Shown here piece by piece: positions 16,732 to 19,077 of a stretch of 64,000 nucleotides of DNA; the first letter of the stretch is position 1; every line of letters starts with the position of its first letter. Under the pieces are notes generated by a model. That model saw only the letters and a list, made by a program, of their open reading frames with translations, made no database searches and was not told where the DNA came from. Position numbers and translations under genes: made by a program. The DNA lies in sequence record PQ093904.1; one strand, written 5' to 3'. This DNA is from Pseudomonas phage phi9_PA9.

Positions 16732-18648
16732 ATGTCTAATGAACAACAGGTTACAAATAAGAAAAAGATTAAGGGCATTGAAGCCAAACATATTACTTAT
16801 TGTACTGATCAATTTGGTAAGTTTACAGATGCACATTTCGTTAAAGAACGAATTCATTTTGAAGATGGTACAACTGCAAATAATTTAAGGATGTGGGAAA
16901 ACTACCAGCGTCCTTTTTGGATTACCGCAAAAGGAATGCGTAACCATAAAGAAAAGAAAGATTACGAATATGAGCGTAACTTAGTTAAATACATGTCAAC
17001 TCAAATTGACATGAAACGTAAGATTAGTAAAATCCTAGGTGACTATTCGGCTAGATCTCTTCGTCAACTAGCGCGTAGTCCTTACCTATATGGCAGTGAT
17101 GTTAGTTCAACCTGTTATCTGAAGCATGATTATCAAGAACGTTATCCTGGTCTAATCTCTCTAAACACTGTTGCTGGCGGTGACATCGAAACCAACGTTT
17201 ATGAAGCTGAGAACGATGGCCAGATTATCTGTATGTCAGTTACACATAAGAACAAAGCTTTCCTAGCCTATTTAAAACGATGGGTTAGTGATATTGAAGA
17301 TCCAGTGAAAGAGACATTAGAACAAGCACAAAAAGAAGAGGTATTATCACATCTAATTAAAGAACGTGGTCTAGATATTGAAGTAATGGTTGTTGAAACA
17401 CCAGTAGATATTATTATTGAATGTTTTAAACGACTACATACCTGGAAACCAGATTTCTTCGCATTCTGGAATATTAGCTTCGACATTGGTAGAATCTTAA
17501 AAACATTAGAACACTATGGTGTTAATCCAGCTGATGTTTTTTCTGATCCATCGGTACCTAAGAATTATAGGTATTTCCATTTTAAGATTGATGAACCTAT
17601 GACCACCACTGCATCTGGGGTCACTAAATCTAAAGGACCGGAGGATCAATGGCATTGGATTACAGCACCCTCTAGTTTTCAATGTATCGATTCTATGTCA
17701 ACTTATCGAGTAACTCGATTAGCTAAAGGACGTGATCCTAACTATCGGTTAGAGTCTATTCTTAGAAAAGAACTAAACATCGATAAATCCACGACCATTA
17801 AAAATGATAAGGACTTAGAAGATTTTATTGAAGGTTTTAATAAACAACTAGTTGACCGACCAGGCGGCGTTATTACTAAATATATTAAAAATGTAGGTAG
17901 TAATGAATGGGTACCGGTGGATGATTTTATATTAAATGATAACTTTACCTATGGTGATTCTATTAGATATGTAATGGAATTTGGTAAGTTAACCTTTAAA
18001 GAAACTGCACATCTTGGTGGTATCGATTGGCACCGTGAGATGCAGACTAAGCATAAAATCAAATATGGTCTTTATAACATCATCGACTCCATTCGACTAG
18101 AACAACTTGATGAACAAGTAAATGACCTTGGTCGCTCTATAAGTCTATTCTCTAAGGCATCTGACTATAAGAACTTTAGTTCTAACCCAAAACGACTATG
18201 TGACGATATGCACTTCTGGTATTTGAATAGACCAGAGCCATGTGTCATTGGTTCAAGTTCAGATCAGATGGTGCATGAACTTGATCAATATGTTATTGGC
18301 CATAATGATTGGATTGTTACACTACCATCATACATGGCAGGTCCAAATGGATTGCAGTGTGTTAAAGATTTACCGAATTATAAAACCTTAATCTTCTGTC
18401 ATATCGCCGACCTTGACATCGTGTCGACATATCCTAACGTTAGTCAGATTCTAAATATTGCACGTGAAACATGTGTGATGGAATTCTCAATGATGGAAGG
18501 AATTAGTGAACACCATCGCCGTGAAGTTGGCGTAAACTTAACAGGTGGTAGGGTTAATGCTATTGAAATCACACAGAAGATCATGGGTGCTCCTAAAATG
18601 GACACCCTGCTAGAGAAGTTTATTAATACCTATAAGAACCCAAAGTAA
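16732..18648 (+). CDS. DEDD 3'-5' exonuclease / family-B DNA polymerase-like protein; N-terminal part only, ends ~70 aa after a motif-A-like DIVSTYPN
   Basis: GGDIETN (Exo I DxE), FWNISFDIGRIL (Exo II, NxxxFD) and DLDIVSTYPN (motif A DxxSLYPS-like). Motifs B (KxxxNSxYG) and C (YxDTDS) are absent. Confidence 0.5.
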   Translation: MSNEQQVTNKKKIKGIEAKHITYCTDQFGKFTDAHFVKERIHFEDGTTANNLRMWENYQRPFWITAKGMRNHKEKKDYEYERNLVKYMSTQIDMKRKISKILGDYSARSLRQLARSPYLYGSDVSSTCYLKHDYQERYPGLISLNTVAGGDIETNVYEAENDGQIICMSVTHKNKAFLAYLKRWVSDIEDPVKETLEQAQKEEVLSHLIKERGLDIEVMVVETPVDIIIECFKRLHTWKPDFFAFWNISFDIGRILKTLEHYGVNPADVFSDPSVPKNYRYFHFKIDEPMTTTASGVTKSKGPEDQWHWITAPSSFQCIDSMSTYRVTRLAKGRDPNYRLESILRKELNIDKSTTIKNDKDLEDFIEGFNKQLVDRPGGVITKYIKNVGSNEWVPVDDFILNDNFTYGDSIRYVMEFGKLTFKETAHLGGIDWHREMQTKHKIKYGLYNIIDSIRLEQLDEQVNDLGRSISLFSKASDYKNFSSNPKRLCDDMHFWYLNRPEPCVIGSSSDQMVHELDQYVIGHNDWIVTLPSYMAGPNGLQCVKDLPNYKTLIFCHIADLDIVSTYPNVSQILNIARETCVMEFSMMEGISEHHRREVGVNLTGGRVNAIEITQKIMGAPKMDTLLEKFINTYKNPK

Positions 18649-19016
18649 TATATCAGTGGAAGCGCCGAGGAGGATATGAATGTTCATCTGTTGGTGACAA
18701 AAGATTCTCGGCTCTTTACGCAAGGCTTCCTGATGGCAGAACAATTGAGGAAGCTTGGCAGTTAGATTGTAAAGGATATCGCATATACTCCAACCATTGG
18801 AAAGCTGGTAAAGGAAAACCACCACTAGACGGGTATAATCCCAAATATGATGATTATAAAAATCTGTGGAAAGTATGGGCGGTATCTAATAAACATCTAA
18901 TGGATGAATTGCGTCAGAATGCAAAAGAACATGATAACTATCTTTCTGATGTTTTTGCTTCTACTGATATTTCACAGGCACGTGCTCTAGCAGAACTACT
19001 TAATGAAGGATATTAA
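18636..19016 (+). other. 126-codon open frame with no usable start codon, in the -1 frame relative to the polymerase-like gene; entry point is the slippery heptamer C_CCA_AAG (18640-18646) next to stop TAA
   Basis: Frame opens after TAA 18633-35. The only ATG is 37 codons from the end. Contains a KRFSALYA segment weakly resembling Pol-B motif B. Confidence 0.3.
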
Positions 19017-19077
19017 AAAATGGAAGGTATTCCTAATTAAATATTATCAATTGATCATTACTGCTAACATAAACTTC

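Follow-up and report, generated by a model that had tools for sequence, protein, structure and literature searches.

A probable -1 ribosomal frameshift site at the 3' end of phiKZ gene 82 and the predicted NADAR-like domain that it would append to a split DNA polymerase subunit

Programmed -1 ribosomal frameshifting on heptamers of the form X_XXA_AAG is known from several bacterial and phage genes. In the replication gene dnaX of E. coli, a shift on A_AAA_AAG allows each mRNA to specify two products, tau and gamma. In the lambda-type G/GT chaperone genes, a shift on G_GGA_AAG near the end of the upstream open reading frame (ORF) accompanies a short major product with a minor one that is extended at its C-terminus. 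The position of the G/GT site is kept across very diverged phages, although the heptamers are interchangeable and other types of recoding are used in some phages (PMC5009743). Measurements in E. coli identify C_CCA_AAG, G_GGA_AAG and A_AAA_AAG as the three most efficient heptamers, and the first of these, which ranks top, gives 54% shifting with a strong stimulator (PMC4066793). Here we describe a candidate site of this kind in a 64,000-nucleotide (nt) stretch of DNA from Pseudomonas phage phi9_PA9 (PQ093904.1; hereafter the window), at the 3' end of the gene for gp82 (PHIKZ082), which is part of the DNA polymerase of phage phiKZ and its kin. The dnaX shift meets a stop codon almost at once and makes a shorter product, whereas at the gp82 site a stop codon would be bypassed and a whole domain added. 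The G/GT genes serve tail assembly, whereas the gp82 site would serve DNA replication and, probably, counter-defence. Moreover, the domain that would be appended to gp82 belongs to a widespread family of standalone proteins, which the T domain of G/GT never does.

The window corresponds to phiKZ, and the region of the site matches phiKZ and its close kin in 44 sequence records, with at least 99% identity in 36 of the 44 and at least 95% in 43. Window positions equal those of phiKZ (AF399011) minus 61228, and all features described below are on the + strand. The zero-frame product of gene 82 (16732..18648) is gp82, a protein of 638 amino acids (aa) that constitutes the N-terminal and 3'-5' exonuclease part of a split, divergent family B DNA polymerase (PolB). 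The gene ends with ...TAT AAG AAC CCA AAG TAA TAT ATC AGT GG..., in agreement with a first-pass annotation of this DNA that had read its last codons as C_CCA_AAG_TAA. The slippery heptamer C_CCA_AAG (18639..18645), which we propose as the shift site, lies in the X_XXY_YYZ phase of gp82, and the zero-frame stop codon TAA (18646..18648) follows it directly.

In the -1 frame, which is closed by a TAA at 18633-18635, an ORF is open over 18636..19016 and ends at the TAA at 19017-19019. The first-pass annotation had placed this ORF correctly and had seen that its first ATG comes late, but it counted 126 codons where there are 127. The earliest ATG, GTG or TTG is the ATG at 18900 (codon 89), the first 88 codons having none, and inspection of the sequence reveals no Shine-Dalgarno sequence ahead of the ORF at the gp82 stop. 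Because the first start codon comes only at 18900, the ORF was missing from a program-made list of ORFs with a minimum length of 40 aa. By a rough estimate, a stop-free stretch of 127 codons at ~37% GC would arise by chance with a probability of roughly 1e-4. The span within which a -1 shift out of gene 82 could be productive measures four codons (18636-18648), and the perfect heptamer lies inside it.

We consider it probable (roughly 0.78, as judged from sequence comparison) that phiKZ gene 82 ends in a programmed -1 ribosomal frameshift site, which yields a gp82-NADAR fusion. Most ribosomes would read AAC CCA AAG TAA and release gp82. In some ribosomes, both tRNAs would slip back by one base, tRNA-Pro in the P site from CCA to CCC and tRNA-Lys in the A site from AAG to AAA, and decoding would then run through GTA ATA TAT CAG TGG... 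as far as the TAA at 19017. The trans-frame product would comprise 761 aa, with gp82 followed by a 123-aa C-terminal domain (VIYQW...LNEGY; coding region 18645..19016) at the junction ...NTYKNPK-VIYQWKRR... (junction-spanning stretch NTYKNPKVIYQW). We infer the slippage, and that only some ribosomes would undergo it, from the observed frame layout, its conservation, the pattern of heptamers and the selection acting on the -1 ORF.

The evidence that carries this proposal comes from a comparison of polymerase/domain junctions in homologous phages, as the first-pass annotation had suggested. Annotated phages, IMG/VR contigs and metagenome contigs, phased by tblastn, provided 37 non-redundant junctions; a polymerase alignment was used to gather them, a scan of viral contigs with the domain protein alone having given only four loci. 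Each of the 22 lineages that have the domain in the -1 frame carries one of three heptamers in phase with the polymerase, and from the heptamer onwards its -1 frame is open. C_CCA_AAG is found in 12 of them (phiKZ, PhiPA3, 201phi2-1, PS119XW, Phabio, Viktualia and several uncultured phages). It is replaced by G_GGA_AAG, the G/GT heptamer, at the same position in one lineage (L038), and by A_AAA_AAG, the dnaX heptamer, in nine chimallivirus lineages comprising Noxifer and its relatives. No ATG, GTG or TTG precedes the conserved N-terminus of the domain in 16 of the 22 (six with C_CCA_AAG, the one with G_GGA_AAG and all nine with A_AAA_AAG).

These heptamers are not a common feature of the genes that carry them. 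Across 21 related polymerase genes (13,717 codons), CCCAAAG, GGGAAAG or AAAAAAG occurs in phase only at the junction. The codon ahead of the C-type heptamer varies (encoding N, P, S, A, L or V), yet its third base is always C. Given that CCA makes up 0.33 of the Pro codons in these genes, AAG 0.55 of the Lys codons and C 0.29 of third positions, the spelling NNC CCA AAG of x-P-K is expected at about 5% per independent lineage. C_CCA_AAG keeps its phase amid saturated flanks and synonymous sites. Many lineages also have a -1 frame stop codon 0-2 codons ahead of the heptamer, so that the productive window is essentially the heptamer itself. Of the explanations for this locus that the first-pass annotation had offered, namely a programmed -1 frameshift, a sequencing indel or a decaying or split gene, the comparison strongly favours the first: the heptamer is present in 22 of 22 cases, a start codon is lacking in 16 of 22, and synonymous sites are saturated.

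The -1 ORF behaves as a protein-coding sequence. The identical frame layout is present in the 44 phiKZ-type records and recurs in other genera whose sequences have diverged. More than 20 isolates encode the protein with 100% identity, and tblastn gives matches in 87 phage records. Between phiKZ and PhiPA3, its nearest distinct relative, the proportion of synonymous differences (pS) in the ORF is 0.70, which is saturated, and that of non-synonymous differences (pN) is 0.06, for a ratio of non-synonymous to synonymous rates (dN/dS) of ~0.03. Comparisons with more distant phages give dN/dS values of 0.10-0.16. The -1 ORF is under strong purifying selection. A set of 5.8 billion proteins contains 693 homologues of the domain, almost all of them standalone, 120-130 aa long and free of Pfam domains, and they correspond to PHROG 9995. 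Because the layout is common to more than 40 independent phiKZ-type genomes and the ORF is under purifying selection, the locus represents neither a sequencing error nor a gene in decay. The first of these options is excluded by the 44 phiKZ-type records and the other genera, and the second by the selection and by a family of more than 690 proteins.

From 114 sequences, AlphaFold models the 123 residues with a mean predicted local distance difference test score (pLDDT) of 96.8. The predicted model resembles the YbiA/NADAR fold, its best structural match is the DarG1 antitoxin, and the three entries that it matches are the same as those via which T4 gp30.3 was identified as AdfN (PMC11825919). 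Residues E35, Q39, K43 and D102 are invariant across the 114 family members. The putative catalytic glutamate, E35 (codon 18747..18749), stands in a TIE-x3-Q-x3-K motif and corresponds by motif to E36 of AdfN and E43 of PnNADAR, and the putative catalytic lysine, K43 (18771..18773), corresponds in the same way to K43 of T4 AdfN. Aligned by eye, DGRTIE35-EAW-Q39-LDC-K43 of the domain faces LE36GFLQGCK43 (/LKH) of AdfN and SEHYFQAQK (/LVEH) of YbiA. Both E36 and K43 are required for full activity of T4 AdfN, with alanine substitutions giving partial rescue only. D102 (18948..18950), in an L-S-D sequence of the last strand and directly after model strand 99-101, is a putative third catalytic residue of the DarG1/BC4488 type. 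YbiA has Glu at this place, T4-type phage NADARs such as gp30.3 have His, and NADARs associated with DarT1 have Asp (PMC11125620, PMC11543638); with its Asp, the domain resembles DarG1 in this respect and not the T4-type phage NADARs.

On the strength of the model, the domain is likely to be a compact member of the NADAR superfamily, or a close structural relative, with the DarG1-like set E35, K43 and D102. This assignment draws on a predicted structure and on motifs aligned by eye, and the results of other searches speak against it. A Foldseek search of the PDB with the domain gave nothing significant, nor did sequence searches of Pfam, NCBIfam, PADLOC and the PDB (phmmer, and hmmsearch with a profile). 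The Pfam NADAR model matches none of the 114 family members (0/114), even at E values up to 10. Alignment of the domain with T4 gp30.3 and YbiA by hhalign gives a probability of less than 1%, and a profile search of PDB sequences recovered no NADAR. The domain has no detectable sequence similarity to AdfN or DarG1, and its 123 aa compare with 152 aa for gp30.3 and ~160-220 aa for solved NADARs.

NADARs take ADP-ribose off guanine in DNA and thereby neutralise the DarT1 toxin. phiKZ is known to encode a different enzyme of this general kind, AdfM (gp104), a macrodomain anti-DarTG2 enzyme that is imported into the phage nucleus (PMC13309987). AdfM and the NADAR-like domain belong to the same phage family, and for both the task would be the removal of ADP-ribose from phage DNA within the phage nucleus, as proposed here for the domain. 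In contrast, AdfM is a macrodomain that acts on the thymine-ADP-ribose lesion made by DarT2, it is a free protein imported by PicA, and its function has been shown experimentally. T4 AdfN is likewise a free protein, whereas the NADAR-like domain is predicted to be an extension of a polymerase subunit; AdfN attains full function only when the infecting phage is T-even, possibly through dependence on a partner from the phage. An enzymatic activity and a biological role can be proposed for the domain. Fusion to gp82 would deliver a sub-stoichiometric hydrolase together with the polymerase, at a fixed low ratio to gp82. Entry into the phage nucleus and a place at the replication fork would come with it, and there the hydrolase would act on template bases whose ADP-ribosylation would otherwise halt synthesis.

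An anti-DarT1 role for the appended domain is a well-founded hypothesis with a little under an even chance. If it holds, counter-defence activity would reach the phage nucleus, and the right place within it, by riding on a polymerase subunit. The domain would then be the missing anti-DarTG1 partner to AdfM and the first replisome-tethered anti-DarT factor, and in phage therapy it would be a probable determinant of the resistance of phiKZ-type phages to defences that ADP-ribosylate DNA. More tentative is the general proposal that nucleus-forming jumbo phages tether a DarG1-like ADP-ribosyl-guanine DNA hydrolase to a replicative polymerase subunit by lineage-dependent recoding (a -1 shift on any of the three top heptamers, TAG readthrough, or an unconventional +1/-2 event), so that a fixed small fraction of the polymerase molecules would take the enzyme to nucleus and fork. 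Such tethering would explain why the domain is free in ordinary phages and tied to the polymerase in chimalliviruses.

A plausible, though not favoured, alternative accepts the frameshift and assigns the domain another function. The domain could be a NADAR-fold N-glycosidase that acts on a different substrate, for example a different adduct in DNA or RNA or, like E. coli YbiA, a nucleotide metabolite, or it could be a non-catalytic module that binds DNA or the replisome. The lack of a significant match to any NADAR sequence model would accord with this, as would the small size of the domain (123 aa, against 150-220 aa in characterised NADARs) and the diversity of NADAR substrates, which include riboflavin intermediates for YbiA; our searches also yielded no data on the sensitivity of phiKZ to DarTG1. 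However, the DarG1 antitoxin is the best structural match, and the DarT1-associated catalytic set is defined by three positions, none of which varies among 114 members. Every phage NADAR tested so far acts on guanine-ADP-ribose DNA, and a DNA substrate would suit a domain attached to a DNA polymerase subunit.

Several observations weigh against the frameshift itself. No conserved 3' stimulatory structure was found, and single-sequence folds are unremarkable, with a hairpin 17-18 nt downstream of the heptamer in a subset only. RNAalifold predicts a structure of -5.65 kcal/mol downstream of the heptamer with no covariation, and the frameshift region matches no Rfam family. A long-range helix built by hand (columns 14-25 with 87-96) scored no better than shuffled sequences and was rejected. 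Upstream elements resembling a Shine-Dalgarno sequence are not consistent across junctions on inspection by eye. At the dnaX site the stimulators are defined, namely a Shine-Dalgarno-like element upstream and a hairpin downstream; none of this kind could be demonstrated at the gp82 site. What does recur is the stop codon, which abuts the heptamer in 12 of 13 C/G-type lineages. A stop codon adjoining a slippery site has long been known as a 'shifty stop' context, which was reportedly described by Weiss et al. in 1987 (cited in PMC5009743), and the TAA of gene 82 may act as a stimulator. When the same heptamers are placed in E. coli without stimulators, they shift only about 0.3-4% of the time (PMC4066793). 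The searchable literature yielded no trans-frame protein, ribosome-profiling or reporter data for this site.

Start codons provide a further point against frameshifting. Among the 12 C_CCA_AAG lineages, six have an ATG or GTG at or beside the first residues of the domain; PhiPA3 reads TAATG, the classic arrangement for translational coupling, and the domain family is normally standalone. Independent or coupled initiation is possible in those C_CCA_AAG phages that keep a start codon, and both routes may coexist there. The codon before the conserved tyrosine of the domain is ATG or GTG in some phages and ATA, GTA, ACA, ACT or GTT in others, which reads like the decaying ancestral start of a once standalone gene.

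It is rather unlikely, in our estimate, that these start codons account for the arrangement as a whole. In such an explanation the downstream ORF is a separate gene, translated by termination-coupled re-initiation at the gp82 stop, and CCCAAAG merely spells a Pro-Lys end. Re-initiation would use the ATG of TAATG in PhiPA3, GTG or TTG in others and, in phiKZ, a near-cognate codon such as the ATA at 18648-18650. The domain family does consist almost wholly of standalone proteins of ~125 aa that start 1-10 residues before a conserved tryptophan. TAATG is present in L020 as well as in PhiPA3, a GTG occupies the place in 201phi2-1, Viktualia, PS119XW and L057, and GenBank lists PhiPA3 gp084 and 201phi2-1 gp143 as independent coding sequences; the failure to find a stimulatory RNA structure at the shift site points the same way. 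Yet in phiKZ, Phabio, L018, L035, L038 and L039 the corresponding codon is ATA, GTA, ACA, ACT or GTT, with no canonical start, and no Shine-Dalgarno sequence precedes the candidate start in phiKZ. In all nine A_AAA_AAG lineages, the polymerase stop codon lies 8-32 codons past the heptamer, inside the conserved N-terminal block of the domain (GGYEC...RFSA), and there is no start codon. Because the polymerase frame runs into this block, re-initiation after termination cannot yield an intact domain in these phages. Re-initiation also leaves unexplained the conservation of an in-phase heptamer amid saturated synonymous sites, the fact that the variant heptamers are exactly the other two of top efficiency, and the existence of versions with an in-frame fusion or an in-frame TAG. 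Homologues with a start codon of their own, which the first-pass annotation had listed as evidence that would count against a frameshift, do exist in a formal sense (the ATG of PhiPA3; standalone forms in N4-like phages). They do not overturn the frameshift, because the same chimallivirus homologues keep the heptamer.

The versions with other frame relationships bear on frameshifting in both directions. Four lineages have the domain in the polymerase frame, three of them without a start codon. In the diverged uncultured phages L042/L056 (~4807; 3807 in L056) and L051 (3777), the domain follows a lone TAG-C, with no start codon. The contexts of the in-frame TAG are CAT TAG CTG and GAT TAG CTA, and other ORFs of L042 end in TAA or TGA, which points to readthrough of the stop codon or to a suppressor tRNA. 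In the distantly related L059 (polymerase 42% identical), polymerase and domain share one frame; there is no homopolymer at the junction, and CCC_AAA_G is present out of slippery phase (~3761). In L053 (~4101) the two parts are again in one frame, and the junction PPKVVSPSIVYTW is the trans-frame junction predicted for 201phi2-1. To be set against this last case is the position of the fusion within a run of six C residues, where it may be a 1-nt assembly indel. No natural in-frame fusion occurs among the best 120 gp82 homologues from 5.8 billion proteins.

A difficulty is posed by 11 lineages of the Psa21/RVTF4 type (drawn from L009, L011, L021-L027, L037, L045-L047 and L052), three of them without a start codon, in which the domain is in the +1 frame, out of reach of a -1 shift. 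The domain here overlaps the 3' end of the polymerase gene by ~20 nt, an invariant GAA_AAG_AAG lies just upstream in the polymerase frame, and some members have GTG or TTG before the conserved tyrosine. Ribosomes may reach the domain by a +1 event, by tRNA-Lys slipping -2 on AAAAG, or by starting at a GTG, TTG or CTG codon. That related viruses may reach one extended product via differing recoding events is familiar from retroviral gag-pol and from the replicase extensions of plant viruses. Those cases concern eukaryotic RNA viruses with defined pseudoknot stimulators, and the analogy is one of evolutionary pattern only. If the frameshift is real, nature has solved recoding at one junction in several interchangeable ways (three heptamers, an in-frame stop codon, fusion and +1), a series in which the evolution of recoding sites could be studied.

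The polymerase gene itself is not interrupted. The first-pass annotation had treated it as a polymerase cut short, on the correct observation that the ORF ends ~70 residues after DLDIVSTYPN and lacks motifs B and C. The arrangement is instead a conserved split, with gp82 as the N-terminal and exonuclease part of a family B polymerase and not a truncated enzyme. The fold of gp82 is that of the N-terminal and 3'-5' exonuclease regions of PolB, and the acidic residues of the exonuclease are present. It has no Pfam or PDB sequence match, and only PHROGs named it, as PHROG 3011 'DNA polymerase' (576 positions), a profile that ends where gp82 ends. None of the best 120 gp82 homologues from the 5.8 billion proteins is longer than 727 aa. 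Motifs B (KxxxNSxYG) and C (DTD) are present neither in gp82 nor in the -1 ORF. They are found in gp50, as KINNNSYSGG and ISDTDST, respectively. The gene for gp50 lies about 35 kb upstream of gene 82, outside the window, and its product matches Pfam PF20286 (divDNApol, Divergent Family B DNA polymerase) over its full length. The exonuclease of the divergent PolB of group 1 jumbo phages is described as encoded elsewhere (PMC7824862), and gp50 and gp82 are already listed in the literature as the phiKZ polymerase. The first-pass annotation had also seen a weak likeness to motif B in KRFSALYA of the -1 ORF, a sequence that belongs to the most conserved block of the separate NADAR-like domain family. 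A polymerase motif B supplied by the extension is ruled out by the presence of motifs B and C in gp50 and by the NADAR-like fold of the extension.

The segment DLDIVSTYPN (D560-N569; 18409..18438) resembles the DxxSLYPS of PolB motif A by inspection. It is invariant in eight homologues and nearly invariant in 60, with D560, D562, Y567 and P568 invariant in the 60. Because the pLDDT is below 50 over this region (residues 512-608) in an AlphaFold 2 model of gp82 folded alone, we treat the segment as a putative motif A. In published split family B polymerases the exonuclease protein is a standalone partner, whereas the presence of a motif-A-like segment in gp82 would place the split inside the palm domain. 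The final ~125 residues of gp82 (window 18231-18555; residues 512-608) are almost invariant and yet have very low model confidence when folded alone, which is consistent with a palm sub-domain that folds only against gp50.

The weakest alternative, which holds the arrangement to be non-functional (an indel from sequencing or assembly that splits one gene, or the remnant of a decaying polymerase or a captured gene) and could cite a polymerase ORF without motifs B and C, a downstream ORF without a start codon and a metagenomic relative, L053, with both parts in one frame, is very improbable given that 44 phiKZ-type genomes, sequenced independently, share one layout with each other and with diverged genera, that dN/dS is 0.03-0.16 with saturated synonymous sites, that the PHROG 3011 profile stops at the end of gp82 and the best 120 homologues are all of 727 aa or less, that motifs B and C reside in gp50, and that the L053 fusion sits in a C6 homopolymer.

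Full-text literature searches found no report of a frameshift in polymerase genes of phiKZ or other chimalliviruses, nor of a NADAR in these phages. Frameshifting on X_XXA_AAG and phage NADARs are both known; their combination, the gene in which they meet and the set of alternative recoding events at one junction appear to be new. A frameshift at the end of gene 82 would add a recoding event to a core replication gene, would reveal a conserved and unannotated enzyme domain, and would make gene 82 the first replicative polymerase gene of a phage with a programmed frameshift.

The gp82 gene and the -1 ORF are flanked by hairpins that resemble terminators. The one between genes 81 and 82, GCCTCCCCTAGGGGAGGC (16638..16655), has a perfect 7-bp G+C-rich stem followed by a T-run and would serve as a terminator on both strands; by its sequence it marks the 5' side of a predicted transcription unit. 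The other, with a 10-bp stem followed by a T-run, lies after the -1 ORF (19089..19113). No terminator-like hairpin occurs after the gp82 stop codon, between it and the end of the -1 ORF. Because such hairpins flank both reading frames and none separates them, gp82 and the -1 ORF are expected to be on one mRNA.

The 381-base coding region is absent from the GenBank records of phiKZ or mis-annotated in them, even though phiKZ serves as the model for nucleus-forming jumbo phages. phiKZ records leave the stretch empty or annotate fragments only. PHIKZ082.1 as annotated (18900..19019) corresponds to the final 39 codons of the domain ORF, called from its first internal ATG, and PHROG 33573, which matches domain residues 86-123, was built on such 38-aa fragments. 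Several domain homologues of 99-100 aa in the protein database are probably gene calls truncated in the same manner. Some records also carry a 'hypothetical protein' from a 30-codon zero-frame ORF (18676..18765) that overlaps the domain ORF. This small ORF is probably spurious; its ATG and the preceding GAGGAGGA fall in codons for the conserved RRGGYEC stretch.

Free versions of the NADAR-like domain are encoded by other phages, all annotated as hypothetical proteins at the four loci that we located (L013, 1229-1606; L014, 1486-1914; L015, 1447-1998; L016, 2468-2899). The domain occurs as a free early-region protein in N4-like Achromobacter and Delftia phages and in Sphingomonas phage PAU, whose version (gp29) has additional residues at the C-terminus, and Pseudomonas phage Cygsa01 also encodes it as a free protein.

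The gp82 homologue of PhiPA3 (L005, NC_028999) is interrupted by a group I intron at 1914-2219 (Rfam RF00028, 71.7 bits, E 2.5e-18). The intron is inserted exactly between DLD and IVSTYPN, at a site equivalent to window position ~18417. The 'DNA polymerase' of PhiPA3 is annotated as ending early because a TAA lies inside the intron.

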